From an uncultured Candidatus Saccharibacteria bacterium (GTDB taxonomy: Bacteria > Patescibacteriota > Minisyncoccia > Phycocordibacterales > JAACPR01), in assembly GCA_964401885.1 (NCBI GenBank), contig CAYOAC010000003.1, positions 1 through 42,516 on the forward strand: a DNA stretch of 42,516 bases, in the 5' to 3' direction. Position numbers and translations under genes: made by a program. Shown piece by piece: positions 6,311 through 33,793 of this stretch; the stretch's first letter is position 1, and each line of letters begins with the position of its first letter. The notes under the pieces were generated by a model. The model was not told the origin of the DNA and searched no databases. It saw only the letters and a program-made list of their open reading frames with translations.

Positions 6311-7330
6311 ATGAAAATAAGTAATTCAATCTTTTTGGGATTATTGTTGCTAATCGTACTGGTGGGTGGTGGTTTATATTTATATATAGAAAAGAATTCA
6401 ATAGGTATTTATAATTTTGATAGTCCAAATATTGAGAAGAGGATTGTTGTCGATAATAAAACAGATTCTTTAAATCCTGTAATTGGCAAAGATATGGATG
6501 AAGATATGGCCGGTTATCATGCGATAAAAATGTTTATAAATACAGGTAATACAAAAATTCCAGAAGTATGTTTAAAATATGAAGTTCGAGAAAAATTTAG
6601 TCATTCTATTGTTTTTGATATTCTAGGAGTCTATGATAATTATTTTTGTAAAGATATTTCAAATAAAGATAAGCTAATTGGAAAAGTTAAAGTCGACACT
6701 TTGAATGCTAAAACTTACTTATTTGATAATTTTACTCAAGAATTTAATGTCCTAAAACTTGAAAATTTTCCTCCAATGTTTGATAAAATATTTTGTGAAA
6801 ATTTAATTAACAAGACACCAACTGAAAGTTTTATCTTATTAGGAAACAAAAATAATTCAGGATATTGTCCAGTAAATGTGAGTTCTGATGTGACCCTGTT
6901 GTTTTCATTTGAAAACATATCTTCAAGTTCTACCGACCCTGCTTTTGTTTTGAATATTTATGATTCAAATAAAGTTTTATTGCAAACTTTACCTATAGAA
7001 TATAATTGGGAGATTTCTCCAATTACGATGAATATACATGACGATATAAATTTTGATGGATATAGGGATTTATTGTTGAGGGTTATGGGTATACGTTCAT
7101 CACAATTTACATACTATAGATATAATCCATCTTTAAAAATTTTTGAAGAAGACGAGGTTTTATTTAGTATTTTTCTTCCTACATTTGATATTAATAAAAA
7201 AACGATTTCTTCGACGGCTGATACTCCAAATTATTATTGGGATGATGAAGGGAATCAAAAATATTACACTCCAGAGGAACAAACTACAGTATTTAAATTT
7301 GAAAATGGTGAATATAAGATTTTAGATTAA
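6311..7330 (+). CDS. secreted or membrane-anchored hypothetical protein
   Basis: 339-aa ORF with an N-terminal hydrophobic segment (IFLGLLLLIVLVGGGLYLYI). It contains a DINFDGYRDLLL element reminiscent of FG-GAP-type Ca-binding loops. Confidence 0.5.
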   Translation: MKISNSIFLGLLLLIVLVGGGLYLYIEKNSIGIYNFDSPNIEKRIVVDNKTDSLNPVIGKDMDEDMAGYHAIKMFINTGNTKIPEVCLKYEVREKFSHSIVFDILGVYDNYFCKDISNKDKLIGKVKVDTLNAKTYLFDNFTQEFNVLKLENFPPMFDKIFCENLINKTPTESFILLGNKNNSGYCPVNVSSDVTLLFSFENISSSSTDPAFVLNIYDSNKVLLQTLPIEYNWEISPITMNIHDDINFDGYRDLLLRVMGIRSSQFTYYRYNPSLKIFEEDEVLFSIFLPTFDINKKTISSTADTPNYYWDDEGNQKYYTPEEQTTVFKFENGEYKILD

Positions 7331-12976: not shown

Positions 12977-13021
12977 AACAATAAGATGGTTTTTAGATAG
13001 ATGGTACATAGCTTTGTTTTT

Positions 13022-13030
13022 TGTTAATAT
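13022..13030 (+). promoter_or_regulatory. extended -10 box (TGtTAATAT) 11 nt upstream of the ATG at 13042
   Basis: TG at 13022-13023 and TAATAT at 13025-13030. Confidence 0.35.
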
Positions 13031-13041
13031 TTATATATAAA

Positions 13042-17457: not shown

Positions 17458-17463
17458 TTGCTA

Positions 17464-19264: not shown

Positions 19265-20518
19265 TCAGTAAACTGGTACAGATGAAAACGTGTTGTGATA
19301 ATCAAAGATTGTCACGTATCGTTCTTTTTCTGCATTTGGACCGGTTGATTTTTCAAGGTTGTCACTCAGTTTTACCAGAGGACGACCACAAGCTGTGATG
19401 GCTTTGGTTACCAAAGATAATGTCGTGAACCCAAGATCATTTGTGAGATTGGTACCCCAACCAAATGTAACGTTGATTCGTCCCTTGAACTGTTTGTAAA
19501 GCGCAAGGATAACTTCAATGTCCAGACCATCACTAAAGACAATCAGTTTTTTTCGTGGATCAATGCCAAGGCTTTTATAAAAAGCAATGACTTTTTCTCC
19601 GAAATGGAACGGATTACCAGAATCATGACGGAAACCTTTCCAAGATTCTGCCATTTCTCGTGGCATGGTTCTGAAAACAAAGTCACTGCCAAAGGTGTCA
19701 GGAAGAACAATAGAAAGCCCTTCCCCATACATATTCCACCAATGCTTCAAAACTTCGTATTGTGAATTACGAAGCTCATCATCAGTCCTCTGCATTGTTC
19801 CTGCAAGAACCATGGCGAGTTCATGAGCATTTGTACCCATTGGGAGTAACCCGTGTTTCATTGCGAGATTCACATTGGAGGTACCGCGAAATTGTGTCTC
19901 GGGTAATTCGGATGCGAGTGTTCCGACAACAAAGTCTTGCCAATCTCGGCTGAATCTGCGCCTCGTACCAAATTCACTGAAAGTGATTCCAGGATTTTGC
20001 TTGAGGATCTCGATTTTTGCCATGAGACGCTTTTCTCCTTCTGCAAATACTTGTTTGCGCTTAGCAGGGGAGAGCTTCTCGAGTTCGGCCCAGAAATACA
20101 ATTCGTTCACAATCGAAAGGGAAATTGTTTCCCAATAGGTTGCTTCACTCCAGATACCCGGGAATTCCAATTCGAAATCATCACCGGTATGATGAAGCTC
20201 ATATGGGGGCAAACTGAAATTCCTAAGGAAATCCAAATACGGTTCTTTGAACATTCTTGCGGAATATTCATTTGTCCCACGTAGGTAGTGAAGATTCGTG
20301 TTATTGAATCTCAGAGTCCTTGCGTGGTCGAGCTCTCGACGAAGATCTGCTTCAGGAATCGATTTGCCAATCCGTACCGATTTGGTTCGATTTTTGAAAC
20401 CGAAGGTTACTGGAACATCCGGAAAATCTTTCTGAATGAGTTGCCCCATAGCGAACTTGTAGAAATCAATGTCATCAAGGCTATTGAGGACAAACGGTTT
20501 ACTGGTCGGTGTTTTCAT
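19265..20518 (-). CDS. pncB: nicotinate phosphoribosyltransferase
   Basis: 417-aa ORF with DFYKFAMGQ near the N-terminus and SEFGTRRRFS, both typical of PncB. Confidence 0.85.
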   Translation of the reverse strand: MKTPTSKPFVLNSLDDIDFYKFAMGQLIQKDFPDVPVTFGFKNRTKSVRIGKSIPEADLRRELDHARTLRFNNTNLHYLRGTNEYSARMFKEPYLDFLRNFSLPPYELHHTGDDFELEFPGIWSEATYWETISLSIVNELYFWAELEKLSPAKRKQVFAEGEKRLMAKIEILKQNPGITFSEFGTRRRFSRDWQDFVVGTLASELPETQFRGTSNVNLAMKHGLLPMGTNAHELAMVLAGTMQRTDDELRNSQYEVLKHWWNMYGEGLSIVLPDTFGSDFVFRTMPREMAESWKGFRHDSGNPFHFGEKVIAFYKSLGIDPRKKLIVFSDGLDIEVILALYKQFKGRINVTFGWGTNLTNDLGFTTLSLVTKAITACGRPLVKLSDNLEKSTGPNAEKERYVTIFDYHNTFSSVPVY

Positions 20519-20553: not shown

Positions 20554-20572
20554 TAGTGTATAAGATACACTA
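20554..20572. promoter_or_regulatory. NrtR-type operator, box 1 (TAGTGT-ataagat-ACACTA)
   Basis: Perfect 6+7+6 palindrome between the pncB promoter and the pncB start codon. Confidence 0.7.
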
Positions 20573-21178: not shown

Positions 21179-21207
21179 TTGACAAATTTAAAGGTATGGT
21201 ATATAGT
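21179..21207 (+). promoter_or_regulatory. pnuC-nadR promoter, TTGACA-17-TATAGT
   Basis: TTGACA at 21179-21184 and TATAGT at 21202-21207. The -10 overlaps NrtR box 2. Confidence 0.6.
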
Positions 21208-21222
21208 GTATGTATAACACTA
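21204..21222. promoter_or_regulatory. NrtR-type operator, box 2 (TAGTGT-atgtata-ACACTA)
   Basis: Perfect half-sites that overlap the -10 hexamer of the pnuC promoter. Confidence 0.7.
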
Positions 21223-21238
21223 TTTAATAATAAAAAAT

Positions 21239-21988
21239 ATGAACTACATAATAAAGGTTGGAAGATTATTTGGAATAAAAGAAGAGAGTTGGGTAAAGGT
21301 TAAAATTAGTAGATTGTGGGGAACAAAAAAAGAAAATATTGAGCAAATAAAAATTGCTTTCGCGATGATTATTATCACTGCAATTTATGAACTTGTTTCT
21401 AAATATGTTTTTCCTGAATATACTTTAAACATCTATGAATTCATTGGAACTTGGACAGGTCTTGTTTGTGTTTGGCTTTCACGTACCAGGAATATTCTTT
21501 GTTGGCCTTGGGGTATTGTTAGTTCATTGGCTCTAGGAATGTTCTTTAGTCAAATTGGCTTGCCAGGACAACAATATTTAAATTGGGTATATTTTGTAAT
21601 CATTCAATTGTGGGCATGGCCATTTTGGGCTTTTGGTGGAGAAGAAAATACTGAGTTGCCAGTTACTTGGCTTTCACTAAAAGGAAAAATAGGTGCTGTT
21701 TTGAGTATTGTTGGTGGAACAGTTATTCTTTATTTTTTAATTGATTACTTTGTTCCAGGATCTCTTTACCCATGGCTTGATGCATTGGTTGTTGCTTCTA
21801 GTGTTGTTGCTCAATTTTTACTTGGTAGAAAAAAAGTTGAAAGTTGGATGCTATGGTTGGGTCCGGTAAATCTAATATCCATTGCACTATTCTTCATGGC
21901 TGGTGCATATACTCTAACTGCGCTTTATATTGCATTCTTTATTCATGCGGTATTTGCTCTCAATTCTTGGATAAAAATAAATAAATAA
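21239..21988 (+). CDS. pnuC: nicotinamide riboside transporter PnuC
   Basis: Polytopic membrane protein. LVCVWLSRTRNILCWPWGIVSS and the Trp-rich helices match PnuC. It lies directly upstream of nadR. An alternative later start is possible. Confidence 0.75.
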   Translation: MNYIIKVGRLFGIKEESWVKVKISRLWGTKKENIEQIKIAFAMIIITAIYELVSKYVFPEYTLNIYEFIGTWTGLVCVWLSRTRNILCWPWGIVSSLALGMFFSQIGLPGQQYLNWVYFVIIQLWAWPFWAFGGEENTELPVTWLSLKGKIGAVLSIVGGTVILYFLIDYFVPGSLYPWLDALVVASSVVAQFLLGRKKVESWMLWLGPVNLISIALFFMAGAYTLTALYIAFFIHAVFALNSWIKINK

Positions 21989-21993
21989 ATTAT

Positions 21994-22956
21994 ATGTTTA
22001 ATAAAGGATTAGTAATTGGTAAATTTTACCCACCACATTTAGGACATAAGTATCTTATTGATACTGCTAAGTCTCAATGTGAACATCTGACTGTTATTAT
22101 ATGTTGGAAAAAGAATCAAGAAATCTCTGGTGTTACTCGTGCCAAATGGTTACAAAGAATTCATCCTGATGTTGAAATTAAATTAATTGATGATGACAGA
22201 CTTGCTGATGATGATTCTGAAGCTTGGGCAAAATCTACTATTGATATATTAGGTTATGTTCCTGATGCTGTTTTTACATCAGAATCATATGGTGATCCAT
22301 ATGCAAAATTTATGGGTTCTGTACATGTGCTTGTAGACAAAGAAAGGACTTATATGCCTATTTCAGGAACAATGGTGCGCGATAAACCAAGAGAATGTTC
22401 ACAATTTCTCACTCCGTATGTGAGAGCATATTTTGCTCATAGAGTTTGTGTAATAGGTGCAGAATCTACAGGTACAACAACTCTTGCTCAAGATTTGGCA
22501 AAATACTATAAAACAGTTTGGGTTCCCGAATACGGAAGATTGTACTCTGAAGCAAAACTTTTTGGAGATATTGATGCACAATGGCGAAGTGAAGAGTTCG
22601 AATATATTGCTAAAGCACAAAGTGTGCTTGAAGATACTATTGCAGAATCATCAAATGGACTTGTTATTTGTGATACAGATCCATTTGCAACAAGTGTTTG
22701 GCATGAAAGATATATGGAAAAACCTTCTGATAAGGTTTTAGAAATTGCTAATAGAAGAAAATATAATTTATATATTTTAACTGGAGATGAAATCCCTTTT
22801 ATCCAAGATGGCACAAGAGATGGCGAACATATTAGACATGATATGCACAAGAGATTCATTGAAAGATTAGAAGAAACAGGAAGAAAATATATTTTAGTTA
22901 CAGGAAATAGGGAAGAAAGATTAAAGAAAGCAATTGAAGCTATTGATTTAATCTAA
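21994..22956 (+). CDS. nadR: NadR-type bifunctional NMN adenylyltransferase / ribosylnicotinamide kinase (no HTH domain)
   Basis: GKFYPPHLGHKYLID is the HxGH nucleotidyltransferase motif. The second-domain P-loop is VIGAESTGTTTL, where Thr replaces the canonical Lys. Confidence 0.8.
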   Translation: MFNKGLVIGKFYPPHLGHKYLIDTAKSQCEHLTVIICWKKNQEISGVTRAKWLQRIHPDVEIKLIDDDRLADDDSEAWAKSTIDILGYVPDAVFTSESYGDPYAKFMGSVHVLVDKERTYMPISGTMVRDKPRECSQFLTPYVRAYFAHRVCVIGAESTGTTTLAQDLAKYYKTVWVPEYGRLYSEAKLFGDIDAQWRSEEFEYIAKAQSVLEDTIAESSNGLVICDTDPFATSVWHERYMEKPSDKVLEIANRRKYNLYILTGDEIPFIQDGTRDGEHIRHDMHKRFIERLEETGRKYILVTGNREERLKKAIEAIDLI

Positions 22957-22960
22957 TAAA

Positions 22961-23380
22961 TTAAAGTCGAAACTTTTTATTTCTCTTTGTATCTTTACTG
23001 TAATATCTAGCGTAGGGAGTTTTGAAAAAGTAATTATAAATATCTGAATCATCAAAATGAATATCTATTTTTTGTTTTTTACAATACTCAGCTTTTGTCT
23101 TATCCCATAAATATGTTTCTAAATGTGGATCATTTTTCTCATCCCAAATTATTTTGGTACCTTTTTCAATATGATGATCAGTAATAGAAAAAAGATGAGT
23201 ATAAGAAATACTATTCTTTTTTAGAAATGGAAGTTCTTTTTCGATTCTTGCTCCAGTTATAATATGAACTTCATGTCCATTATCTACTAGAAGTTTTGTT
23301 AAAGTTTTAAAGAAAATCAAATTAGAATCAACGACTCCGTGTATATCTAATCCGATTTTTATTTTATTTGTTGAAGCCAT
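22961..23380 (-). CDS. small HAD-like protein, last gene of the nadE-nadD operon
   Basis: 139-aa ORF that overlaps the nadD stop by 17 nt. The N-terminal IGLDIHGVVD resembles HAD motif I (DxDxT/V) with the second Asp replaced by His. HIITGA follows. Confidence 0.45.
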   Translation of the reverse strand: MASTNKIKIGLDIHGVVDSNLIFFKTLTKLLVDNGHEVHIITGARIEKELPFLKKNSISYTHLFSITDHHIEKGTKIIWDEKNDPHLETYLWDKTKAEYCKKQKIDIHFDDSDIYNYFFKTPYARYYSKDTKRNKKFRL

Positions 23381-23969
23381 ATAGTTTGTTGTTAATAATA
23401 TAATCTGCTAATTTTGTATCTAACCATTTATATAATTCATCTGGAGTATCTATTTCTCTAATTTTACTGCTCGAAATTTCGGGAATTATTTCTTTTTGTT
23501 TTATAGATATTGAATGGGGAGGAATTTCTATATCTTCAATTTTCATATAACCCAATCTTTCAATAATTATAAAATTTCCACGATTAAAAATTTCTTCACC
23601 TCTTACCCAGAATTTTTTTATATCTGGAACAAGTTCGGTACTTATAACAAAATGAAATTCATTATTAGGATATTCTTTTTCAAGTTCTTCCAATGTTTCT
23701 ATTGTAGAGGTTGATTTATCTTTATTGATTTCTATTTCAGATATTTTTATTTTTGGTCCAGATTCTTTTTCTAATTCTTTCGTTAATAAATTTGCCATTA
23801 TAATTCGATCATTATTATTTGCATTAATTGCTTTATCTTTTCTTTGACCTGAAGGTATTAACCAAATTTCATCGCAAGGAAAATACTCTTGAATTATTTC
23901 AATAACTTTTTTATGACCAATATGAGGTGGGTTAAAAGACCCGCCGAATATAGCAATTTTTTTCTTCAT
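23364..23969 (-). CDS. nadD: nicotinate-nucleotide adenylyltransferase
   Basis: IAIFGGSFNPPHIGHKKVIE motif. Length is 201 aa. It lies 8 nt downstream of nadE. Confidence 0.85.
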   Translation of the reverse strand: MKKKIAIFGGSFNPPHIGHKKVIEIIQEYFPCDEIWLIPSGQRKDKAINANNNDRIIMANLLTKELEKESGPKIKISEIEINKDKSTSTIETLEELEKEYPNNEFHFVISTELVPDIKKFWVRGEEIFNRGNFIIIERLGYMKIEDIEIPPHSISIKQKEIIPEISSSKIREIDTPDELYKWLDTKLADYIINNKLYGFNK

Positions 23970-23977
23970 GTTACTAA

Positions 23978-25927
23978 TTAGTTAAGGTCTTCTATCCAAG
24001 TATTTAGTTCTGCATCTGATGGCATTCTCCAATCTCCTCGTGGTGAAAGGGCAATAGAACCAATCTTAGGACCATCTGGCATTACTGATCTTTTCCATTG
24101 ATTTCGGAAAAATCTTGTAATGAAAACAGAAAGCCATTTTTTGATTACGTCTTCATCATAATTTGAAAAGGCTTTTGTTGCTTGCCAAAGAATCTTTTTT
24201 GGATTGCTTCCCCAACGAATGAAGTGATAAAGGAAGAAATCATGAAGTTCATATGGACCGATGATATCTTCTGTCACTTGTCCAATTTCACCGTCTTTAA
24301 CAGTTTTAAGTTCTGGAGAAATAGGTGTGTCGACAATATCAATTAATACTTCTTCAAGATTTTTATCACCGTCTGTTTGAGCAAAGTGTCGAACTAGGTG
24401 ACGAACCAAAGTTTTTGGAACACCGGCGTTGATATTGTAATGTGAAAGGTGGTCACCACTGAATGTGCACCATCCAAGTGCAATCTCAGAAAGATCTCCA
24501 GTACCCAAAACAATCCCTCCTATTTGATTTGCTTTATTCATTAGAATCATCGTTCTATATCGTGCTTGAGTATTTTCGTATGTAATATCTTCTGTCTTGC
24601 TGTCGTGACCGATATCTATAAAATGTTGCTCAACTCCTTTACTAATTGGAATTTCTTCAATTGAAACTTTACATGCTTGAGCAAGTTTCCAAGCGTTTGA
24701 TTTGGTTCTGTCTGAAGTTGCAAGACCTGGCATTGTATAGCAGTGAATGTTTTCTGTTGGAATATTTAGAAGTTCAAAAACTCTTTTTGCAACAAGAAGG
24801 GTGAGTGTAGAATCTAATCCACCAGAAAGTCCAAGAGCAGCTTTTTTGATACCAGTTTGTTCAAGTCTTTTGGCTAATCCTGCAACTTGAATATTAATTA
24901 TTTCTTCTGCTGATTCTGCACGAGCTTTTAGATCTGAAGGAATAAAAACATTTGGAATTATTGTTCGTGTAAATGTTTCCGTTGCAGAGTCTGATAATTC
25001 TACTTCTATAGTTCTAAAACTATTAATGTTTGATGATTTAGCGCTTTCTCCGAAACTTGTTGTTTTAATTCTATCTAATTGAAGAATGTCCAAATCAATG
25101 TCGGCATAAATTATTTGTCCTTCTCTTTCAAATCTTTTTGATTCTGAAAGGAGAGTACCGTTTTCGGCAATAATTGCATGACCACCAAAAACAACATCAG
25201 TAGTTGATTCATGAATACCTGAAGATGTATAAATATATCCACATACATTTCTTGATGATTGAGTTGAAACTAATTCTCTTCTGTATTTTGCTTTTCCAAC
25301 AAGTTCATTAGAAGCAGAAAGATTAACAATTACATTTGCACCAGCAACGGCATAAAAAGAACTTGGAGGTAGAGGAGTCCAAAGATCTTCACAAATTTCT
25401 GCGGCAACAATACAATTTGGATTGTTTAAATTTTTGAAAAGCATATCGGTTCCGACTGGAACTTTGTTTCCCAAAATATTAACTTCTTTTGTTGTTAAGT
25501 CTCTAGAAGAAGAAAACCATCTTTCTTCATAGAATTCTTTATATCCAGGAATACTTGTTTTGGGTACAATTCCAACAATTTTTCCTTTATTAAGAACAGC
25601 TGCAATATTAAAAATCATACTATCAATAATAAGAGGGAGACCTACAAATATAAGAGCATCTAATTTTCTAGTTTCATCTAAAATATTTTCTAAAGCCAAA
25701 AGAGAATTCTTTAAAAGAACCTTTTGATGAAAAAGATCACCAGCTGTATATCCTGTGATGGATAGTTCGGGGAAGGTGATTATTCGGGCACCATTATCAA
25801 AAGCTGTTAATGTTTCTTTAATAATTTCTTTTGCATTATAAAACGGGTCAGCTACTTTTAATTTGGGAACCGCCGCAGCTACTTTTACATAACCGAAATC
25901 GGATAATTTGTTTGTTTTTGATGTCAT
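23978..25927 (-). CDS. nadE: glutamine-dependent NAD+ synthetase (CN-hydrolase plus NAD synthase domains)
   Basis: 649-aa ORF. The N-terminal nitrilase-like domain has FPELSITGY and a Cys-containing AAEICEDLW. The PP-loop is GLSGGLDSTL. Confidence 0.9.
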   Translation of the reverse strand: MTSKTNKLSDFGYVKVAAAVPKLKVADPFYNAKEIIKETLTAFDNGARIITFPELSITGYTAGDLFHQKVLLKNSLLALENILDETRKLDALIFVGLPLIIDSMIFNIAAVLNKGKIVGIVPKTSIPGYKEFYEERWFSSSRDLTTKEVNILGNKVPVGTDMLFKNLNNPNCIVAAEICEDLWTPLPPSSFYAVAGANVIVNLSASNELVGKAKYRRELVSTQSSRNVCGYIYTSSGIHESTTDVVFGGHAIIAENGTLLSESKRFEREGQIIYADIDLDILQLDRIKTTSFGESAKSSNINSFRTIEVELSDSATETFTRTIIPNVFIPSDLKARAESAEEIINIQVAGLAKRLEQTGIKKAALGLSGGLDSTLTLLVAKRVFELLNIPTENIHCYTMPGLATSDRTKSNAWKLAQACKVSIEEIPISKGVEQHFIDIGHDSKTEDITYENTQARYRTMILMNKANQIGGIVLGTGDLSEIALGWCTFSGDHLSHYNINAGVPKTLVRHLVRHFAQTDGDKNLEEVLIDIVDTPISPELKTVKDGEIGQVTEDIIGPYELHDFFLYHFIRWGSNPKKILWQATKAFSNYDEDVIKKWLSVFITRFFRNQWKRSVMPDGPKIGSIALSPRGDWRMPSDAELNTWIEDLN

Positions 25928-25936
25928 ATATTTATA

Positions 25937-25955
25937 TAGTGTTAACTATACACTA
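25937..25955. promoter_or_regulatory. NrtR-type operator, box 3 (TAGTGT-taactat-ACACTA)
   Basis: Perfect half-sites that abut the -10 of the nadE promoter. Confidence 0.7.
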
Positions 25956-25983
25956 ATAATACTTATTTAAAATTTTTTGTCAA
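25955..25983 (-). promoter_or_regulatory. nadE operon promoter, TTGACA-17-ATTATT (minus strand)
   Basis: The reverse complement gives TTGACA (25983-25978) and ATTATT (25960-25955). Confidence 0.5.
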
Positions 25984-25985
25984 AT

Positions 25986-26717
25986 CTAGGAAAAGAATTT
26001 CCTAAGTTCTTGAGTTTTTTTAACTTTGAATTTATATAGACGTGCAGGTCTTTGTCTTCCACCTTTTGAAAGTTTTTTGGTATCTTCAAGAATTCCTAAT
26101 TGTAGAAATTTCTTTCGAAAATTACGTTTATCGATAAGTTTATCAAAAACAGCTTCATAAATATTTTGGAGTTCTGTAAGCGTAAAGGTTGGTGCAAGTA
26201 ATGAGTAAGAGACATTAGTATATTCAAGTTTTGAAATTAATCTTTCTAAGGCATATTCGACTATTTTTTTGTGATCAAAAGCTAGATTTTTGATTGAACG
26301 AGCAGGAATAAATTTTGGACTTTCTGTTTGGTCTGATTCCAAAATATTTATTTGTTCAATCGGGGCAATAGCAAAATAGGCGATACTAATAACAGGGCCC
26401 CTAGGATCTCTCTTTAACTCATCAAAAGTATACAACTGTTCTGTGAAAATATTCTCAAGCCCAGCTTTGTCTTTTAATATTCTTTTTACCGTATCAATGC
26501 TGGTTTCTCCTTCTTTGAGGAATCCACCAGGTAGGGCAGAACAATCTTTGAATGGTTCTTTTTTTCTATTAATTGTCAGTATTTTTAAGACACCTTTTTC
26601 TATGGTGAAAAGTATTACATCAACGGTTATTGATGGTTTGTAATATCTATTTGAGTCAATTGACATATCATTATCGTACTCGTTTGAATCAATATATGCA
26701 AGAGTTTTTGTGTTCAT
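25986..26717 (-). CDS. nrtR: Nudix-related transcriptional regulator of NAD metabolism (NrtR-like)
   Basis: The N-terminal Nudix fold has a degenerate Nudix box, GGFLKEGETSIDTVKRILKDKAG (REUXEE reduced to RILKDK). The C-terminal ~90 aa look winged-helix-like (FRKKFLQLGILEDT...RPARLYKF). The gene sits among NAD genes and beside the palindromic boxes. Confidence 0.75.
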   Translation of the reverse strand: MNTKTLAYIDSNEYDNDMSIDSNRYYKPSITVDVILFTIEKGVLKILTINRKKEPFKDCSALPGGFLKEGETSIDTVKRILKDKAGLENIFTEQLYTFDELKRDPRGPVISIAYFAIAPIEQINILESDQTESPKFIPARSIKNLAFDHKKIVEYALERLISKLEYTNVSYSLLAPTFTLTELQNIYEAVFDKLIDKRNFRKKFLQLGILEDTKKLSKGGRQRPARLYKFKVKKTQELRKFFS

Positions 26718-26736
26718 TTTTAGTTTTTATTATTTG

Positions 26737-26765
26737 ATAATAGTGTACACTTGACACTAAATCAA
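26737..26765 (-). promoter_or_regulatory. nrtR promoter, TTGATT-17-TATTAT (minus strand), with box 4 in the spacer
   Basis: The reverse complement gives TTGATT (26765-26760) and TATTAT (26742-26737). Confidence 0.5.
26741..26759. promoter_or_regulatory. NrtR-type operator, box 4 (TAGTGT-acacttg-ACACTA)
   Basis: Perfect half-sites. It lies in the spacer of the nrtR promoter and covers the -35 of the divergent PP2C-operon promoter. Confidence 0.7.
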
Positions 26766-26779
26766 GTTGGGTATATACT
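26751..26779 (+). promoter_or_regulatory. promoter of the PP2C-kinase-nicotinamidase-vWA operon, TTGACA-17-TATACT
   Basis: TTGACA at 26751-26756 (inside box 4) and TATACT at 26774-26779. Confidence 0.55.
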
Positions 26780-26794
26780 CTCAAATGAATCAGA

Positions 26795-26813
26795 TAGTGT
26801 CAAGTTCACACAA
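26795..26813. promoter_or_regulatory. NrtR-type operator, box 5, one mismatch (TAGTGT-caagttc-ACACAA)
   Basis: It starts 15 nt downstream of the TATACT -10, in the leader of the PP2C operon. Confidence 0.5.
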
Positions 26814-26890
26814 AATTATGGATAATCCTATTGACTAATCTATTATATTGTGATACTTTGGTGCTCAACGCTCTTTGAAAATTAAATCAA

Positions 26891-27763
26891 ATGAAAACAG
26901 ACCCTGTTAGACATATTTTTGGTATTGCTGGAGGATCCGTAATTGGATCCGAACATGCAATGCTTGGTAGACCCGGTTCTAGGAACAATCAGGATGCCCT
27001 TAATTGGGTATACGGTCGTAACTGCATATTTGCAGTTGTGTGTGATGGTTGCTCAAAAGGTGCCCATAGCGAAATCGGTTCACAACTTATTTCACGTATT
27101 CTTTCTAGGATTGTAATTAATCTTGCAGATGCTGCTTTGGATGCAAATCCTGCGGCTAATCTTGGGGTTGGTTCTGAATTCTGGAAACGTGTGGAACAAT
27201 TTTTGCTGAACGATGTTTTGACTATTACTCGCATGATTGGAGGTAGTTTGAGTCAAACAATCACTGATTTTTGGCTCTCTACAATCGTTGGGGTGCTTAT
27301 TACTCCGGATTTGACGTACATTGTTGCTGTCGGTGATGGTTTTTATGCAGTTAATGGAGAAGAGATTGTCCTCAAACCTGAGGCTGGAAATTCGCCTGCT
27401 TATATTGCATATCAAATTTCAGGCACAACCTTGACCGTAGAAAATCCTGAAATCCTTCACTTACGAGTTCATGATACTTTCGCCACTGATAGTGTTGAGA
27501 GTATTATTCTTGCTAGTGATGGTGTCCAAGATTTGATTGACAATGCTGAAAATAATTTACCTGGAAAGGCAGAAAAAATAGGCAGTGTTCATCAATTTTC
27601 GGACAGAAGGTTTTTTACTAATCCTGACAATGTCAGAAGGAGACTGGCTCTTACTGGGCTAGAAACTGTTTCTGAAAATCGTATCGCCTCGTCACCGCTT
27701 AAGGATGACACAACGGTAATAACCATCCTCAGAAAAGGTTCGACTTCTCAGACTTCTGAATAA
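26891..27763 (+). CDS. PP2C-family (PP2C_2-type) protein phosphatase
   Basis: GSEHAMLGRPGSRNNQDAL...FAVVCDGCSKGAHSEIGSQ...IILASDGVQDL. Confidence 0.75.
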   Translation: MKTDPVRHIFGIAGGSVIGSEHAMLGRPGSRNNQDALNWVYGRNCIFAVVCDGCSKGAHSEIGSQLISRILSRIVINLADAALDANPAANLGVGSEFWKRVEQFLLNDVLTITRMIGGSLSQTITDFWLSTIVGVLITPDLTYIVAVGDGFYAVNGEEIVLKPEAGNSPAYIAYQISGTTLTVENPEILHLRVHDTFATDSVESIILASDGVQDLIDNAENNLPGKAEKIGSVHQFSDRRFFTNPDNVRRRLALTGLETVSENRIASSPLKDDTTVITILRKGSTSQTSE

Positions 27764-27769
27764 ACGCTT

Positions 27770-29629
27770 ATGAAAGTAACAATTTCTGGCAAAACATTTA
27801 CAATTGCTCCGTCTAAGATGATCGGAGAAGGTGGGGAGGCGGAAATCTATGATATTGGTGGCGGAAAGGTTGCAAAAATCTTTAAGACCGCTAGTCATAT
27901 CAGTTTTCGAGATTCCCAATCTTCACAAGAAGCTGCTCGCAAAAAAATTGCTGAGCATCAAAGAAAGCTACCCGCGTTTCCGAAGGGTATGCCCTCAAGG
28001 ATTATTGGGCCATCCGAATTGGTTTTGGATCCTGCTACAGGTAAAATTGTAGGATTTACAATGCCCTTTATTCGTGATTGTGAATCATTGTTTTCGCTGT
28101 CTCAAAGATCGTTTCGAGAATCTTCTTTCGATGATTCAAAAGTCGTAAGAGCTTTTATAGATCTTCACGGTACGGTGATTAATGCTCATCAAAAGAAATT
28201 TATTTTTGGAGATTTCAATGATCTTAACGGATTGGTGAAACCTGATGGAAGTGAAGTTCTTATGCTTGATGCAGACAGCGCTCAGTTCGGAGGTTATGAT
28301 TGTCTTTTGTTTACAACCAAATTTATTGATCCTCTGTGTGCAAAAATTAATCCAGAAGGAAATGCTCCTGTGCTGTGCAAACGGCATAATGAACTTTCTG
28401 ATTGGTATGCATTTGCGCTTATGGTTATGCAAAGTTGGCTGTATGTTGGACCCTTTGGCGGTGTATATCGACCAACGGGTGGTAGAAAAAAAATACCTCA
28501 CGACGCAAGATCATTGAGTCGTATAACAGTTTGGGATGCAGATGTTATCTACCCCAAACCAGCTCGTCCTCTTTCTGATCTGCCTTCGGATGTCCTTGGA
28601 TATTTTGAAGCAGTTTTTCGAAAGGATAAACGAGAGCCATTTCCACTAAGCTTGCTTGAGTCACTTGACCGAAAGGCAAAAGGACTCATTCCGGAAAAAG
28701 TGGGACCGATTCAACCTGGCCTTATTCATCAAACTGTTCATGGCATGAAAGCAGATAGAATATTTCAGACTTCTGGAAAAATCTTGTATGCAACATGTCA
28801 AAGTGGAAAGTTGGTGTGGCTGTATGCGTGGGACGGTGGTATTCTTCGTGAAAACGGAAAAAAAGTTATCGCTGGTGAACCCGATAGAAAAATTCGATAT
28901 AGAATTTCTGGTGACAGAACCATACTTGCAAAAGATGAGACTGTTATCGTTCTTGATGCGGATGGTTCAATCGATCGTTCAATGACTGATGTTGTTTCAA
29001 ATCGACCAATGGTCGATGCAAATAGTAAAAGTATTTTCGTGATTCCAAACGGAGAACTGTCTCGACGGAGCTTAAGTGCTCATGGCCCAGTTCAAGAAAC
29101 CCATGGAAGGTTTATCGAAAATCAAACTATTTTTTGGGTCGGAGAGGACCTAGGATTCGGCTTTTATAGAGCGGGGAACTTGTGTATGTATTTTATTTTC
29201 AAACCTCAGGGTGTAGGAATAAATGATTCACTAGCTCTTCCGCCCATCAAAGGACAATTGATCGATGCGACAGTCGCTTTTGGCACTGACCGTATTTGGT
29301 TTTTTGTAGCTACTCAAGAAAATGCTCAACGTATAAATCGTTGTTATGCTCTTGATGGATCCGGCAACATCCTTGGAAGTGCCGAAACGACAGAAGGTGA
29401 TGGATCGTGGCTCTCAACCATTCGTGGTAAAAGTGCTGCAGGAAAAAACTTATTTGTTGCTACCGATGATGGAATTGTGAGAGTTGAACTGAGTGGTTCG
29501 ACTCTTGCTGTAACCAAGGAATTTCCAGAAACGGCTCGGTTTGTCGATTCTGGTTCGACGATTATCGTCCACAAGGGCGGAATCGCGGTTGTGAGATCTG
29601 GAGAAATCTGGAATCTCACAATGTCTTGA
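27770..29629 (+). CDS. atypical Ser/Thr protein kinase-like protein (YegI-like) with an uncharacterised ~330-aa C-terminal region
   Basis: Gly-rich loop IGEGGEAEIY, VAKIFK (VAIK-type Lys), FIFGDFNDLNGLV (catalytic-loop D..N), LMLDADSAQFGG (DFG-equivalent). Confidence 0.65.
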   Translation: MKVTISGKTFTIAPSKMIGEGGEAEIYDIGGGKVAKIFKTASHISFRDSQSSQEAARKKIAEHQRKLPAFPKGMPSRIIGPSELVLDPATGKIVGFTMPFIRDCESLFSLSQRSFRESSFDDSKVVRAFIDLHGTVINAHQKKFIFGDFNDLNGLVKPDGSEVLMLDADSAQFGGYDCLLFTTKFIDPLCAKINPEGNAPVLCKRHNELSDWYAFALMVMQSWLYVGPFGGVYRPTGGRKKIPHDARSLSRITVWDADVIYPKPARPLSDLPSDVLGYFEAVFRKDKREPFPLSLLESLDRKAKGLIPEKVGPIQPGLIHQTVHGMKADRIFQTSGKILYATCQSGKLVWLYAWDGGILRENGKKVIAGEPDRKIRYRISGDRTILAKDETVIVLDADGSIDRSMTDVVSNRPMVDANSKSIFVIPNGELSRRSLSAHGPVQETHGRFIENQTIFWVGEDLGFGFYRAGNLCMYFIFKPQGVGINDSLALPPIKGQLIDATVAFGTDRIWFFVATQENAQRINRCYALDGSGNILGSAETTEGDGSWLSTIRGKSAAGKNLFVATDDGIVRVELSGSTLAVTKEFPETARFVDSGSTIIVHKGGIAVVRSGEIWNLTMS

Positions 29630-29668
29630 TGTCTCAATATCCAAACAAAAACAGAAAGCACTCTTGAA

Positions 29669-30733
29669 ATGAAAAACAAAACGTTTACATCTAATCCTGG
29701 ATTCTTCAATCCCGCCAATGCAGCTTCATTCGCATATTCACCCAATCAGGGTGATGTTCGGGTTGCAGCTCAACAATTCGTTCGGCAACACGGGATCAAT
29801 CCCGTAAAGCCAACGGACTTCAAAGTTGAATTGGCCATCATTGATGGTCAAAAAGACTTCTGTTTTCCGGAAGGGTCGTTGTTCGTCGCTGGACGTAGTG
29901 GTCGCGGTGCAATTGATGACAGTGTTCGTATTGCGGAATTTATTTATCGCAACGTCGATATCATTACGGGAATTACTACAACTTTGGATACGCACTTTGC
30001 GTTCCAGATTTTCTTCCCGTCTTTCTGGACTACCTCTGATGGTGGGCCAGTGATGCCTCACACTGTCATTAGTGCTGATGACGTGGCCAGTGGAAAGTAT
30101 AAGCCGAACATCAACATGATGTCGGCACTTCCTGAACTCAAAGGGAATTACGGTTGGTTGTGCAAACAAGTTTTGCACTATTGCCGTGAACTCGAAAAGA
30201 CCGGGAAGCTGATGCTTTACATTTGGCCTGAACATTGCATTCTGGGTTCTGACGGACATCCACTCGTTGGTGTCATTCATGAAGCTCGCATGTTCCATGC
30301 TTATGTCAAAGGAGTTCAGAGTATTTCTGAAATCAAGGGTGGGTTAACTCTTACGGAAAACTATTCTGTTTTCTCGCCGGAAGTTCTCACTCGTCACGAC
30401 GGTGGGTCACCCATTGCACATAAAAACCATGGTTTGATTAAGCGACTCATTACAAATGACCGTCTGGTCTTCCTTGGTCAAGCATCGTCTCATTGTGTTG
30501 CTTCCAGTATTCGGGATTTCTTGGGCGCGATTGCTCATGACCCGGATCTAGTGAAAAAGGTGTACGTGGTTGAGGACTGTATGTCCGCAGTCACTGTGCC
30601 TGATGGTAAGGGTGGTTTTGTTCTCGATTGTACCGACATTGCAAATAAAGCGCTGGATGAATTCCGTGCCGCTGGTATGTATGTCGTAAAATCGACCGAC
30701 CCCGTCGAAACTTGGCCAAACTTCTTCAATTGA
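29669..30733 (+). CDS. pncA: isochorismatase-family hydrolase, long nicotinamidase (PncA)-like
   Basis: LAIIDGQKDFCFPEGSLFV (catalytic Asp region), TLDTHF (metal-site-like) and GQASSHCVASS (nucleophile Cys). Substrate is inferred from context. Confidence 0.55.
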   Translation: MKNKTFTSNPGFFNPANAASFAYSPNQGDVRVAAQQFVRQHGINPVKPTDFKVELAIIDGQKDFCFPEGSLFVAGRSGRGAIDDSVRIAEFIYRNVDIITGITTTLDTHFAFQIFFPSFWTTSDGGPVMPHTVISADDVASGKYKPNINMMSALPELKGNYGWLCKQVLHYCRELEKTGKLMLYIWPEHCILGSDGHPLVGVIHEARMFHAYVKGVQSISEIKGGLTLTENYSVFSPEVLTRHDGGSPIAHKNHGLIKRLITNDRLVFLGQASSHCVASSIRDFLGAIAHDPDLVKKVYVVEDCMSAVTVPDGKGGFVLDCTDIANKALDEFRAAGMYVVKSTDPVETWPNFFN

Positions 30734-30746
30734 TCTTGGTCTCTTC

Positions 30747-30767
30747 CTGAAAACTGAAAACTGAAAA
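30747..30767. repeat. three perfect tandem CTGAAAA heptamers in the pncA-like/vWA intergenic spacer
   Basis: CTGAAAA at 30747-30753, 30754-30760 and 30761-30767. Confidence 0.9.
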
Positions 30768-30784
30768 ACAAAAATACGAAAAAT

Positions 30785-31603
30785 ATGAATCCTCCTAACA
30801 ATGTTTCTTCTGCTGCCGACCTCACTGGGATTTTCGGTTCCGCCGCTCAAACAGGTGCTGTATCAAATGCTACACTTCAACAGATCGGTGTTGTCGATCT
30901 TGGAGAACAAATTCAAGCTGGATTTGGAATCAGTGTGGATGATGTTCAGGCAACTGAAGTCGTTCTCGTTGGTGTCCTCATCGATGATTCGGGGTCCATT
31001 CGATTTGCCGGTAATACGGAAAATGTTCGTAGTGGACACAATCTTGTTATCGATTCGTTGAGTGGTTCTGGCTCGAAAACTCGCGACGGAATCCTTATGA
31101 TGACAAGATATTTGAACGGAAAAGTTCTTTTTCCGTTTGTGTCGATTGATCAAGCAACCAAAATGGATTCTAGAAATTATAATCCGGATGGTGGTACTCC
31201 ATTGTTCGATCAGACGGTCGTATTCCTTGCTACAATGTTGGCAAAGGCACAGGAATTCTTGGATGCAGGTGTACCATGCAGGACAATCTCCCTGATTGTT
31301 ACTGACGGTGCCGATATTCATTCTGTCAAGCAAAATGCTGCATCAGCAGCTAAGCTTGTTGGTGACATGTATCGTGCTGAAAACCACATCATTGCCGCAA
31401 TGGGTATCGAAGATCCGTCAGCAGGAGGTGTTGATTTTAAAGACATCTTTAAACAGATGGGAATCGATGACAGATGGATTTTAACTCCTGCGAACTCCCA
31501 AAAGGAAATCCGGGATGCCTTCCATACCTTCAGTCAATCTGCTGTTCGTGCTTCACAAAATGCGGCAGCTTTCAGCCAGGCTGCTGGTGGGTTTGGAAAT
31601 TGA
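30785..31603 (+). CDS. TerY-like vWA-domain protein
   Basis: MIDAS motif VLIDDSGSI, then GGTPL and SLIVTDGAD. There is no signal peptide. Confidence 0.75.
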   Translation: MNPPNNVSSAADLTGIFGSAAQTGAVSNATLQQIGVVDLGEQIQAGFGISVDDVQATEVVLVGVLIDDSGSIRFAGNTENVRSGHNLVIDSLSGSGSKTRDGILMMTRYLNGKVLFPFVSIDQATKMDSRNYNPDGGTPLFDQTVVFLATMLAKAQEFLDAGVPCRTISLIVTDGADIHSVKQNAASAAKLVGDMYRAENHIIAAMGIEDPSAGGVDFKDIFKQMGIDDRWILTPANSQKEIRDAFHTFSQSAVRASQNAAAFSQAAGGFGN

Positions 31604-31638
31604 GTCTCGGTATTATTCATTTGATTTTTTGAATACAA

Positions 31639-31674
31639 ACGCTAACTAGTCTTGTACTAGTTAGCGTTTTTTTA
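31639..31674. terminator. bidirectional intrinsic terminator between convergent genes
   Basis: ACGCTAACTAGT-cttgt-ACTAGTTAGCGT: a 12-bp stem followed by TTTTTTT. Confidence 0.85.
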
Positions 31675-31681
31675 TTTTTTA

Positions 31682-32494
31682 TTATTCAATAATTCTTTCA
31701 ATACGTTCTACACGTTTTAATAATTCTTCATTATTGTAACGTGAACGTTCAATAGGATTCCATTTATTTTTTCCATCAACTTCATTTCTCCAAGGACAAA
31801 TTGATTTCATCCAACCGAGATAAGGTGTAGGTGTTTGATCTTCGACATTAGGATTAATTCTTGTGTAGTGAAGGATCTGACAATTATGAATACGATCAGC
31901 AGGATCTTTTGAACTATCGAGATGGTGAAAAGTTTCTTGAGACATTCTTTCTAATCTAACTCGAAAAGCCCACATCACTTCACCATGACAAACTATCACA
32001 ACATTTTTTCCATCACATTCTCGATGCAAGGTATCAATTATTCTATCTATTCTTAAACAAAGTTCGGCGATAGATTCTCCATTTGGGGGAGTCCAATAAA
32101 AAGGATCAATGTTTCTTTCTATTAATGATTCTGAATATTTTTCTTCGCGTTCTTGAACAGAAATTCTATCCATGTTGCCCCAATTACGTTCACGTAAATA
32201 AAATTCAGTAAACCAAGATGCGTTTTCTAATTTTAAATTAGCAGCAGTTTCCATGGCTCTCAAATATTCTGATGAATAAAATCTATCAAATTTGATATTC
32301 ATGTTTTGTCTAATCCATTCACCAGTTACCTGTGCTTGTTTTACCCCTTCATCTGAAAGTCTCCAAAGTGAACTGTGGCGATTTCTAAAATCATCACTAT
32401 ATGCACTATGATCTCCTTGTTTTGAACGATTAGTTGCTATGTTTCCTTCTGACTCTCCGTGACGTATTAAAATTAAATTATTAGGCATTCCCAT
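31682..32494 (-). CDS. histidine phosphatase (phosphoglycerate mutase-like) family protein
   Basis: LILIRHGESEGN (RHG motif), SSEYLRAMETA, VIVCHGEVM. Start is moved to ATG 32494 (or 32488) because the longer ORF runs through a hairpin at 32551-32576. Confidence 0.75.
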   Translation of the reverse strand: MGMPNNLILIRHGESEGNIATNRSKQGDHSAYSDDFRNRHSSLWRLSDEGVKQAQVTGEWIRQNMNIKFDRFYSSEYLRAMETAANLKLENASWFTEFYLRERNWGNMDRISVQEREEKYSESLIERNIDPFYWTPPNGESIAELCLRIDRIIDTLHRECDGKNVVIVCHGEVMWAFRVRLERMSQETFHHLDSSKDPADRIHNCQILHYTRINPNVEDQTPTPYLGWMKSICPWRNEVDGKNKWNPIERSRYNNEELLKRVERIERIIE

Positions 32495-32550
32495 ATGTAT
32501 AAAAGTAGCACTTAAAGGTGTTTTTGTAAAAAGAGATTTCTGTTTTCTGT

Positions 32551-32576
32551 AACCCACACGATTGTGTGGGTTTTTT
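32551..32576. terminator. GC-rich hairpin with a T-run (second of two tandem hairpins)
   Basis: AACCCACAC-gatt-GTGTGGGTT followed by TTTT on the plus strand. Confidence 0.45.
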
Positions 32577-32580
32577 AATT

Positions 32581-32611
32581 AAAAAAGGACTTCGTAAAAA
32601 AAACGAAGTCC
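32581..32611 (-). terminator. intrinsic terminator of gene 32633-33793
   Basis: On the minus strand: GGACTTCG-(U-rich loop)-CGAAGTCC followed by TTTTTT. Confidence 0.6.
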
Positions 32612-32632
32612 AAAATTGAAACTGATCTGTAT

Positions 32633-33793
32633 TTAGAAAATAATCTGTCTGTAACCAGATTGGTCGCTCGAACTCACGACCCAACGATTATCATATGGTG
32701 CCAAAATAATTGTTCCACGAAGTCTGCTTGGATTGGGCATCCTTAAAAGCCAACTTGTATCAACAAAAATTTTATCCCCGTATTCTCTAAAGATACTGTA
32801 GGTTGGCGGAGGCGCCATTAAGATACCTTCTTTTGTAAACGGACGATCTTGAAATATCTCATAGAGAATCAAAGCTGGTTGACTATCATCTTCCTGACTT
32901 TTTGCGAATCTCAAAAAAGGTAACCAATGAATCCATTCACCAATCTTTTCTCCATTCGACAAGACAAAACCTAATGTCTTATGTTGGGTCTGAAGTGTCG
33001 ATAAGTACAATGCTCTTGAAGGTCCACCGGGTTTGGGATAATGAAGAAATTCATTTAATTGAGGATCGGTCATAAAACCGCTTCCAAGTAAATTTTCTTT
33101 ATAACCGACCTTGCCTTCGTCGCCTAGGAATGTTACAAATTTTCGCATGGATTCCATTTGCCCTTCGATGGCTGGAAATATAATTGGATCACCAAACTTG
33201 CAAATATATTCTAGAGTCATGTCTTGAACTTTTTCACTTGTAAGTTTGAGAATTCTATTTCCAGCAGCACAGGATATCGATACTTCTTGAGTGATATAGT
33301 TTACAATCACTGAAAAGATGGGGACACCTCTTCTGATGCAGCTAATTGCTGATGTTGCTCCAGTTATTGAGGCCGGTGAACCAAAATCTTTTTCCCATTG
33401 TTCTGGCGTTTTGCTATCTGTTAGAATATCACCAACTTTTGCATCTTTTGGGAAATTCCTTAAGAAGCTTTTTAGTTGATTGGATCTGTCAGTTGGATCA
33501 CAGATAAAAACTGTTCTGAAAGTACTTGGATCATTTGGACGAAAAGTATCATCAAAATTGTACTTTTCCTTTCGTCCTACTTCTTCCGTTATTACCACTG
33601 CGCCAGAGTCATACTTGTTGAGTTCATGACCAATTGTAATTTCGGGACCCGAATCCATTCCTAAAGTATCAGTTTTTCCGTAAAGGTTGACTGGCTGCAA
33701 AGCATCACCGACCGTCGAATGATATAGGTCGTAAAATGCTTTTACTATAGCTCGCAGAGAGGCATTCAAATGCGCTTTTTCAACACCTTGCAT
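32633..33793 (-). CDS. divergent IMPase/FBPase (FIG) superfamily-like phosphatase
   Basis: 386-aa ORF. VVITEEVG plus VFICDPTDRSNQ resemble the EE and DPxDG[ST] metal-binding motifs. SAISCIRRGVPIFSVIVNY...AAGN parallels the IMPase core. A good SD (AAGGAG) lies 8 nt upstream. Confidence 0.35.
   Translation of the reverse strand: MQGVEKAHLNASLRAIVKAFYDLYHSTVGDALQPVNLYGKTDTLGMDSGPEITIGHELNKYDSGAVVITEEVGRKEKYNFDDTFRPNDPSTFRTVFICDPTDRSNQLKSFLRNFPKDAKVGDILTDSKTPEQWEKDFGSPASITGATSAISCIRRGVPIFSVIVNYITQEVSISCAAGNRILKLTSEKVQDMTLEYICKFGDPIIFPAIEGQMESMRKFVTFLGDEGKVGYKENLLGSGFMTDPQLNEFLHYPKPGGPSRALYLSTLQTQHKTLGFVLSNGEKIGEWIHWLPFLRFAKSQEDDSQPALILYEIFQDRPFTKEGILMAPPPTYSIFREYGDKIFVDTSWLLRMPNPSRLRGTIILAPYDNRWVVSSSDQSGYRQIIF

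Follow-up and report, generated by a model that had tools for sequence, protein, structure and literature searches.

A four-gene PP2C, kinase, nicotinamidase and vWA cassette within a predicted NrtR regulon of an uncultured Candidatus Saccharibacteria bacterium, and its conservation among bacterial phyla

The four-gene cassette and its regulatory signals

The window, by which is meant the whole stretch of 42,516 nucleotides analysed here (contig CAYOAC010000003.1 of assembly GCA_964401885.1, from an uncultured Candidatus Saccharibacteria bacterium), was found to contain a cassette of four open reading frames (ORFs) on the + strand. The first (26891-27763, 290 aa) encodes a PP2C-type Ser/Thr phosphatase, followed by a YegI-like Ser/Thr kinase with a C-terminal beta-propeller (27770-29629, 619 aa), a predicted long-form nicotinamidase of the PncA type (29669-30733, 354 aa) and a cytoplasmic von Willebrand factor A (vWA) protein with a complete metal-ion-dependent adhesion site (MIDAS; 30785-31603, 272 aa). 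The intergenic gaps along the cassette were 6, 39 and 51 nt. A sigma-70-type promoter, TTGACA-17-TATACT, with 11 of 12 consensus matches was located ahead of the first gene (26751-26779, + strand), and an intrinsic terminator with a 14-bp stem (31637-31669), a 5-nt loop and a T run was located behind the last one (31637-31679, + strand). The arrangement is the one that an earlier note, made from the sequence alone, had described: four co-directional genes with one promoter and one strong terminator. The cassette promoter was joint-best among the sites listed in 25900-32700, level with the predicted nadE promoter.

The -35 hexamer was found to be enclosed by a perfect palindrome, box 1 (TAGTGTACACTTGACACTA, TAGTGT-N7-ACACTA; 26741-26759), followed by the presence of a second box with one mismatch in the 5' leader (26795-26813), which begins 15 nt past the -10 hexamer; both had been pointed out in the earlier note and both were recovered. 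The operators of the regulator NrtR have a GT-N7-AC core, and ADP-ribose suppresses the binding of NrtR to DNA in vitro (PMC2330246). Further perfect boxes were found at 20554, 21204 and 25937, ahead of pncB, pnuC-nadR and nadE-nadD, respectively, these genes being confirmed by Pfam. The window contained five boxes with at most one mismatch against 0.06 expected, and five were reached in 0 of 100 shuffles. The claim of one palindrome marking pncB, pnuC-nadR, nadE-nadD and nrtR was upheld.

The nrtR gene (25986-26717, - strand) is divergent from the cassette. Box 1 is situated upstream of it, at 24 nt from the start codon, and by its position could serve both divergent promoters. The product was found to contain an N-terminal Nudix-like domain (Pfam NUDIX, 2.8e-09) followed by a C-terminal winged-helix domain (Pfam NrtR_WHD, 2.7e-23, 82 bits against a cutoff of 27), which is the architecture of NrtR and agrees with the Nudix-type regulator that had been suggested; the match to the NCBIfam NrtR model (2.5e-49) was under the equivalog cutoff of that model. 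The Nudix box, as read from the translation, was degenerate, with RILKDK in place of REUxEE, and the protein is therefore probably a sensor and not a hydrolase.

The other boxes of the window mark genes of nicotinamide adenine dinucleotide (NAD) salvage that were assigned to the same regulon. The pncB gene (19265-20518, - strand), for the nicotinate phosphoribosyltransferase that uses the nicotinamidase product, is preceded by a perfect box at 20554-20572. The pnuC (21239-21988) and nadR (21994-22956) genes on the + strand form, with their perfect box at 21204-21222, the unit 21204-22956. The nadE (23978-25927) and nadD (23364-23969) genes on the - strand are contained in the unit 23364-25955, in which the perfect box (25937-25955) lies just downstream of a TTGACA-16-TATTAT promoter. 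On every feature that the sequence can test, the cassette operon is a predicted member of this NrtR regulon. Scanning the window for Rfam families and tRNAs gave no match, and thus no riboswitch was detected in it at Rfam gathering thresholds.

Features of the four proteins

The phosphatase matched Pfam PP2C_2 (2.6e-14), as had been proposed, and E. coli PphC (YegK) by BLASTP (4e-5). The Asp-bearing motifs NQD, CDG, GDG, SDG and DDTT were found to be conserved in 76 orthologues, and by these motifs the enzyme looks active.

Single-sequence searches of Pfam, NCBIfam and PDB gave nothing for the kinase-like or the vWA protein, and because these direct family searches were uninformative their folds were assigned through structure prediction and profile comparison. 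The AlphaFold2 model of the kinase-like protein (pLDDT, predicted local distance difference test, 87) was divided into residues 1-305, for which Foldseek matched the protein kinases BRAF, Aurora B and PknB, and residues 318-619, in which 28 strands form seven four-stranded blades and the DDB1 propeller was matched. The family profile aligned with E. coli YegI over 303 columns, the Zn-ribbon region included (hhalign 98%, E 1e-13). The kinase-like product of the earlier note is thus a protein kinase by both fold and homology. Its C-terminal portion of about 330 residues, there called uncharacterised, is a seven-bladed beta-propeller. The kinase domain was found to contain the invariant residues G19 and G21 of the G-loop, K36, D148, N153, D167 and D169, followed by the presence of six invariant arginines in the propeller. 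In most orthologues the kinase and the propeller are joined by a CxxC...CxxC Zn ribbon, which was missing in the window protein (residues ~300-318) and its nearest relatives; it was lost independently in a second subgroup too. A propeller-only search of 1.84 billion representatives gave 541 relatives, and since nearly all of them are proteins of ~620 aa with the propeller at 320-620, the propeller is specific to this kinase.

The best PDB matches of the family profile of the 29669-30733 product were the nicotinamidases of Leishmania, Mycobacterium tuberculosis and yeast, at the D-Q-x-D-F, WPxHC and xHCV motifs, and hhalign against M. tuberculosis PncA gave 95% (E 4e-8). The M. tuberculosis sequence used as query matches those parts of 3pl1 that appear in the PDB profile output. 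Residues D59, K223 and C276 were invariant in the family and are the predicted Asp-Lys-Cys catalytic triad, the D and C motifs of which align with the M. tuberculosis and Leishmania enzymes. Residues D107, H109 and H189 were likewise invariant and form the predicted metal site; WPEHC aligned with the WPPHC of 3r2j and 3pl1, and the correspondence of D-x-H was made by eye. The metal signature D-x-H...WPxHC separates nicotinamidases from other isochorismatase-like hydrolases. It was invariant in the family, and the profile matches of the product, earlier called isochorismatase/nicotinamidase-like, are to nicotinamidases and do not place it in a non-nicotinamidase clade. Homologues of ~57% identity are named nicotinamidase by their source databases, and many orthologues of the window protein carry a precomputed match to Pfam isochorismatase PF00857.

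Compared with classical PncA, the long form was found to contain ~160 extra residues. As judged from the family alignment and the PncA matches, they are made up of an N-terminal extension of ~50 aa and of a large insert that separates D-x-H from WPxHC. Some cassettes contained a still longer PncA of ~590 aa (L019:9911-11653, L021:9898-11658, L032:9862-11730, L038:9867-11645 and L077:10123-11856) with a conserved N-terminal domain of ~230 aa, GRIIRGK...LTDDP...FLYFTVHLRELFSGDGYTYT. This domain gave no Pfam or PDB match and was also found free-standing (L021:12732-13421 and L077:16144-16911).

The vWA protein was modelled by AlphaFold2 with pLDDT 85, and Foldseek matched the model to integrin I-domains and other vWA domains. 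The MIDAS residues D67, S69, S71, T138 and D174 (DxSxS...T...D) were invariant in 24 sequences. The Ser-rich C-terminal tail, FSQSAVRASQ...FSQ...GGFG, is conserved as well, and its three invariant serines (S250, S252 and S257) are candidate phosphosites. Sequence searches matched neither a VWA or TerY model of Pfam nor a PDB entry, and the PDB profile search returned only noise. The match to E. coli YegL was weak (hhalign 21%, E 1e-3 over 75 columns). Of the TerY-like vWA protein that had been proposed, the vWA fold and the complete MIDAS were confirmed, whereas the likeness in sequence to YegL is weak.

Conservation of the cassette among bacterial phyla

A kinase-profile scan with one genome per species gave at least 354 relatives, and the locus counts rest on the best 80, the six-frame ORFs of which were searched with the window proteins as queries. 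The order PP2C-kinase-PncA-vWA was found in about 75 of these 80 loci, essentially all those with enough flank; in one of the 80 the vWA gene stands ahead of PncA. The kinase-seeded loci belonged to many lineages of Patescibacteria and to Cyanobacteria, Planctomycetota, Acidobacteriota, Chloroflexota, Gemmatimonadota, Binatia, Desulfomonile and others. Seven loci were seeded with PncA, namely three arbitrarily picked homologues (a Minicystis metagenome-assembled genome, an Elusimicrobia metagenome-assembled genome and one further assembly) and all four IMG/VR matches. The full cassette was contained in 7/7 of them, by which Myxococcota (Minicystis) and Elusimicrobia were added. At least a dozen bacterial phyla share the four-gene cassette.

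The long PncA family was found only inside the cassette in the seven PncA-seeded loci, and because kinase-seeded and PncA-seeded loci both hold the cassette, the long PncA and kinase families are mutually faithful partners. The nicotinamidase gene had been described in the earlier note as inserted and as peculiar to this version of the triad. That was wrong, and a local insertion was rejected, since the gene order is kept in the two sets of loci; the gene is a constant component of the four-gene cassette, which is ancient. The identity of the vWA and PncA proteins between phyla was 56-60%, which points to strong constraint, to a horizontal transfer of the whole package among lineages, or to a combination of the two.

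Eight cyanobacterial loci (L055, L066, L067, L068, L071, L072, L075 and L079) were found to contain, between the PP2C and kinase genes, ADP-ribosylglycohydrolase genes (PF03747, E 1e-36 to 1e-40), singly or as a pair, as at 6434-7216 and 7210-7983 of L075; a further gene is listed at L031:4409-5266. These genes are a second tie to ADP-ribose, independent of NrtR. ADP-ribosylglycohydrolase genes were also present beside some cassettes of the candidate phyla radiation (CPR).

A few loci contained additional ORFs within the cassette: one of the OGFr_N family between PncA and vWA in L075, and one of ~200 aa between kinase and PncA in several Pseudanabaena loci. The four IMG/VR contigs (L085-L088, 81-266 kb), classed as viral in the form of uncultivated viral genomes (UViGs), each contained a complete PP2C-kinase-PncA-vWA cassette; in two of the four, PncA is immediately preceded by a perfect NrtR box. 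The flanks of these contigs gave no Pfam match above the family cut-off and no PHROG match, and for that reason they may be either huge phages or misclassified cellular DNA. Shorter PncA-like proteins of ~31% identity were found in LR756511.1, LR756500.1 and LR745208.1 (uncultured phage, 460-595 kb) and in MT837596.1, a phage record of 6.5 kb. The plasmid search gave only distant kinases of 21-26% identity and no close copies of the cassette.

NrtR boxes and NAD genes at the related loci

Box statistics were made on 75 evaluable loci, the position of a box being judged within 400 nt of the PP2C gene. In 1.12 Mb of related loci 42 perfect boxes were found, and 36 of them lay within -400..+60 of the PP2C start, a region that makes up 2.9% of the sequence. 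A box with at most one mismatch was present in 48/75 loci, a perfect box in 34/75 and two or more boxes in 22/75, neighbouring boxes being usually 23-29 nt apart. The other boxes with at most one mismatch stood nearly all before nrtR, nadE, pncB, nadD or a His_Phos homologue, and four were without an assigned gene. The loci of Elusimicrobia and Minicystis likewise have boxes on the cassette promoter, as do loci that lack an adjacent nrtR.

The recurrent neighbours within 8-kb flanks of the cassette were nrtR (43 loci), pncB (about 25), nadD-like genes (15, some of them fused to NAD kinase), nadE (7-10) and a small Nudix gene (7), pncB being the commonest metabolic neighbour. No recurrent defence genes were found among the neighbours in the 80 loci. 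These counts support the claim that the triads co-occur with NAD genes and NrtR boxes. A chance adjacency, in which the nicotinamidase gene merely lies within an unrelated kinase/phosphatase/vWA operon, is barely credible and was rejected, being contradicted by order and content kept in about 75/80 loci, at least a dozen phyla and 7/7 PncA-seeded loci.

Other features of the window

The end of nadD is overlapped by an ORF of 139 aa (22961-23380, - strand) with no Pfam match and with homologues in L035 and L044, which apparently completes the nadE-nadD operon. The pncB gene is adjoined by a gene for a protein of 558 aa (17458-19134, + strand) with a central methyltransferase domain. Its homologues were found near the cassette or NAD genes in 11/80 loci (L059:2345-3796 with 34% identity, E 3e-106), and the protein, so far unrecognised in this respect, may belong to the NAD/NrtR neighbourhood. 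A gene for a protein of 962 aa (13021-15909, + strand) with a prokaryotic LSDAT/SLOG domain (PF18171) was found about 11 kb upstream of the NAD cluster; SLOG domains are predicted binders of nucleotide-derived ligands.

Downstream of the cassette a convergent gene for a His_Phos_1 phosphatase was found (31682-32557, - strand), which is not preceded by a box in the window. Close homologues were located near other cassettes (L027:15483-16334, L031:3517-4425, L032:3244-4068 and L054:4504-5364), and those of L031 and L054 have NrtR boxes upstream. Within 26000-31500 the GC content of the cassette was 0.40-0.45 and that of the flanks 0.29-0.36, i.e. ~10 points lower; the raised value fits either horizontal acquisition or strong amino-acid constraint.

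Comparison with known systems

The TerY-P triad is defined by a vWA protein, a PP2C phosphatase and a kinase-Zn ribbon protein (PMC11090510). In the E. coli operon yegL-pphC(yegK)-yegI, YegI autophosphorylates and PphC dephosphorylates it; the triad has no known signal, substrate or phenotype, and its role was called mysterious by its authors (bioRxiv 10.1101/819920, 10.1101/303594). The cassette shares with these systems a MIDAS vWA protein, a PP2C phosphatase and a Ser/Thr kinase, to which a Zn ribbon is attached in most orthologues, all encoded in one operon. However, only the cassette has a nicotinamidase gene between the kinase and vWA genes. Its kinase contains the family-specific propeller where YegI has a two-pass membrane C-terminus, and the Zn ribbon is kept in most of the kinase family and lost in the window protein. 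Its vWA protein is only weakly similar to YegL in sequence (21%). The cassette stands under NrtR among NAD-salvage and housekeeping genes, unlike the tellurite, DNA-processing or defence loci of TerY-P. By sequence, the triad is partly a member of the TerY-P/YegIKL class.

The TerY-P-like anti-phage system (Gao et al. 2020; PADLOC) has the same composition of vWA, PP2C and kinase. It differs in the C-terminus of the kinase, which is an OB fold there and a propeller here, and the cassette has a metabolic context and matched no PADLOC model.

The NrtR regulons with classical pncA-pncB in, for example, Pseudomonas, Clostridium and Lactobacillus (Rodionov et al. 2008, PMC2330246) resemble the present one in the Nudix and winged helix-turn-helix repressor, in the GT-N7-AC palindrome overlapping the promoter and in the common targets pncA, pncB, nadD, nadE and pnuC-nadR, whereas pncA is here a family of ~350 aa inside a kinase/phosphatase/vWA operon. 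The targets given in that reconstruction, of 2008, contained no kinase, phosphatase or vWA gene, only the unexplained nrtX-nrtY, and for several cyanobacteria it contained pncB without pncA (PMC2330246). With the classical nicotinamidases (M. tuberculosis PncA, yeast Pnc1 and Leishmania PNC1) the cassette enzyme shares the Asp-Lys-Cys motifs and D-x-H...WPxHC, but it is ~160 residues longer, strictly linked to the triad and, in the window protein, below the Pfam threshold.

No paper tying a nicotinamidase or NrtR to a kinase/PP2C/vWA operon was found in the full-text literature, as the earlier note had supposed; the coverage did not extend to the TerY-P paper of 2012, the cyanobacterial NAD paper of 2006 or the supplements to the NrtR paper, so an earlier mention is possible. 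The fixed coupling of the triad with the NrtR/nicotinamidase system, the family-specific propeller and the long form of PncA appear to be new.

Discussion

The cassette is best explained, with a probability of roughly 0.55, as an NAD-salvage operon that is repressed by NrtR and derepressed by ADP-ribose, and whose nicotinamidase is gated by a phospho-switch of the TerY-P/YegIKL type. The transcriptional and metabolic part of this reading is much more certain than the gating part. On this reading, the consumption of NAD would release ADP-ribose and nicotinamide, and ADP-ribose would lift NrtR off the two boxes at the -35 hexamer and in the leader, by which the cassette would be derepressed along with pncB, nadD/nadE and pnuC-nadR. 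The four proteins would be made together and act as one unit. The nicotinamidase would convert nicotinamide to nicotinate, feeding PncB and then the products of nadD and nadE. Its activity would be set by a phosphorylation cycle of kinase against PP2C together with MIDAS-mediated binding of the vWA protein, the kinase, PP2C and vWA proteins acting either on the nicotinamidase or on a vWA adaptor bound to it. The propeller, with its six invariant arginines, may be a docking domain or a domain that senses an anionic ligand. The outcome would be control of nicotinamide clearance and of the flux back to NAD. We infer that the nicotinamidase (or the vWA protein) is the target of the triad, as we do the role of the propeller and a function of the module in managing NAD breakdown.

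A more specific form of this proposal would make the four proteins an obligate complex, in which a kinase with a ligand- or partner-sensing propeller, a PP2C phosphatase and a MIDAS adaptor switch the nicotinamidase on and off, setting the nicotinamide level and the NAD-recycling flux upon NAD consumption or ADP-ribosylation. This form is tentative, and its odds were put at somewhat below even.

Several observations weigh against the reading of a gated NAD-salvage operon. The window nicotinamidase scored 18.8 bits with PF00857, below the gathering cutoff of 27. The hhalign alignment pairs K96 of M. tuberculosis PncA with the non-conserved K213 and not with the invariant K223; because of this, K223 was taken as the catalytic Lys by its invariance and by the spacing of the KG...YS motif. 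No recognisable box was found within 400 nt of PP2C in 27/75 loci, in some of which a box stands instead upstream of a co-directional nrtR. Two Spirulina loci (L070:1565-6491 and L073) contained PP2C and kinase with no PncA or vWA gene nearby, and hence the PP2C-kinase pair can exist without the enzyme. The high identity between phyla, an operator that is the same throughout and the raised GC content would also fit one package that has spread horizontally, and such spread would inflate the apparent number of independent observations. Phosphorylation of the cassette proteins, their mutual binding and the hydrolysis of nicotinamide are all predicted. As to the surroundings of the Spirulina pairs, degenerate boxes were found in front, followed by the presence of dtd and an HSP70-like gene after the pair; the E. 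coli HSP70-family gene yegD likewise adjoins yegI (L084).

By analogy with the vWA-MIDAS partners in the maturation of metalloenzymes, the triad might instead help the long nicotinamidase to assemble or to take up its metal, or act as its scaffold, with phosphorylation driving a maturation cycle and relaying no signal. The metal site of PncA and the MIDAS of the vWA protein are both invariant, the long PncA was accompanied by the triad wherever it was found, and the retention of the cassette in very small Patescibacteria genomes suggests that the accessory genes do more than modulate the enzyme and are needed. However, known vWA maturation factors of metalloenzymes work with AAA+ ATPases and not with kinases, classical nicotinamidases of ~190-220 aa are not known to need such a factor, and no chaperone-like domain was detected with Pfam or NCBIfam. 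On balance, such an apparatus is an unlikely explanation.

The substrate could also be a related amide and not free nicotinamide; nicotinamide mononucleotide (NMN), nicotinamide riboside and modified pyridines are examples. Alternatively, the cassette could serve a protein ADP-ribosylation cycle in which kinase, PP2C and vWA handle ADP-ribosylated targets. The ADP-ribosylglycohydrolase genes inside the cyanobacterial cassettes and beside CPR ones speak for a reading of this kind, as do the ~50-aa extension, the large insert and the extra ~230-aa domain of some versions. But all metal- and nicotinamide-binding residues of characterised nicotinamidases are kept, the nicotinate consumer pncB is the commonest metabolic neighbour, and no ADP-ribosyltransferase was seen in the cassette, so that we hold this alternative, too, to be improbable.

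A role in NADase-type stress or defence, which the earlier note had named as an example, is not supported by the context. Such a module would be of the TerY-P kind, and it would sense infection and answer through NAD metabolism. According to Gao et al. 2020, cited in PMC11090510, TerY-P-like triads act as stand-alone defence systems; ADP-ribose, to which NrtR responds, is produced by NADases; the cassette is present on four IMG/VR contigs; and its GC content is above that of the flanks. Set against this, no PADLOC family was matched by a cassette protein at E <= 0.01, close plasmid copies and a toxic effector were absent, the neighbours are NAD-salvage and housekeeping genes (ribosomal proteins, ATP synthase), and the unmatched flanks of the IMG/VR contigs leave their viral nature unproven. 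A defence module is accordingly quite improbable.

If the four proteins do form an obligate complex that switches the nicotinamidase, triads of the TerY-P/YegIKL class would thereby gain their first defined physiological output, and the enzyme would be the first phospho-regulated nicotinamidase in bacteria. The cassette ties one branch of the widespread but orphan vWA/PP2C/kinase triads to one simply assayed enzyme and to a known input, ADP-ribose through NrtR, and because the enzyme is single, its assay simple and the transcriptional input known, the question of triad output becomes testable. Nicotinamide inhibits sirtuins and ADP-ribosyltransferases, and post-translational control of its clearance would be added to NAD biology. 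The cassette would also account for the nicotinamidase step in the NrtR regulons of cyanobacteria and Patescibacteria, and the retention of ~4.7 kb in very small genomes suggests that it matters to the cell.

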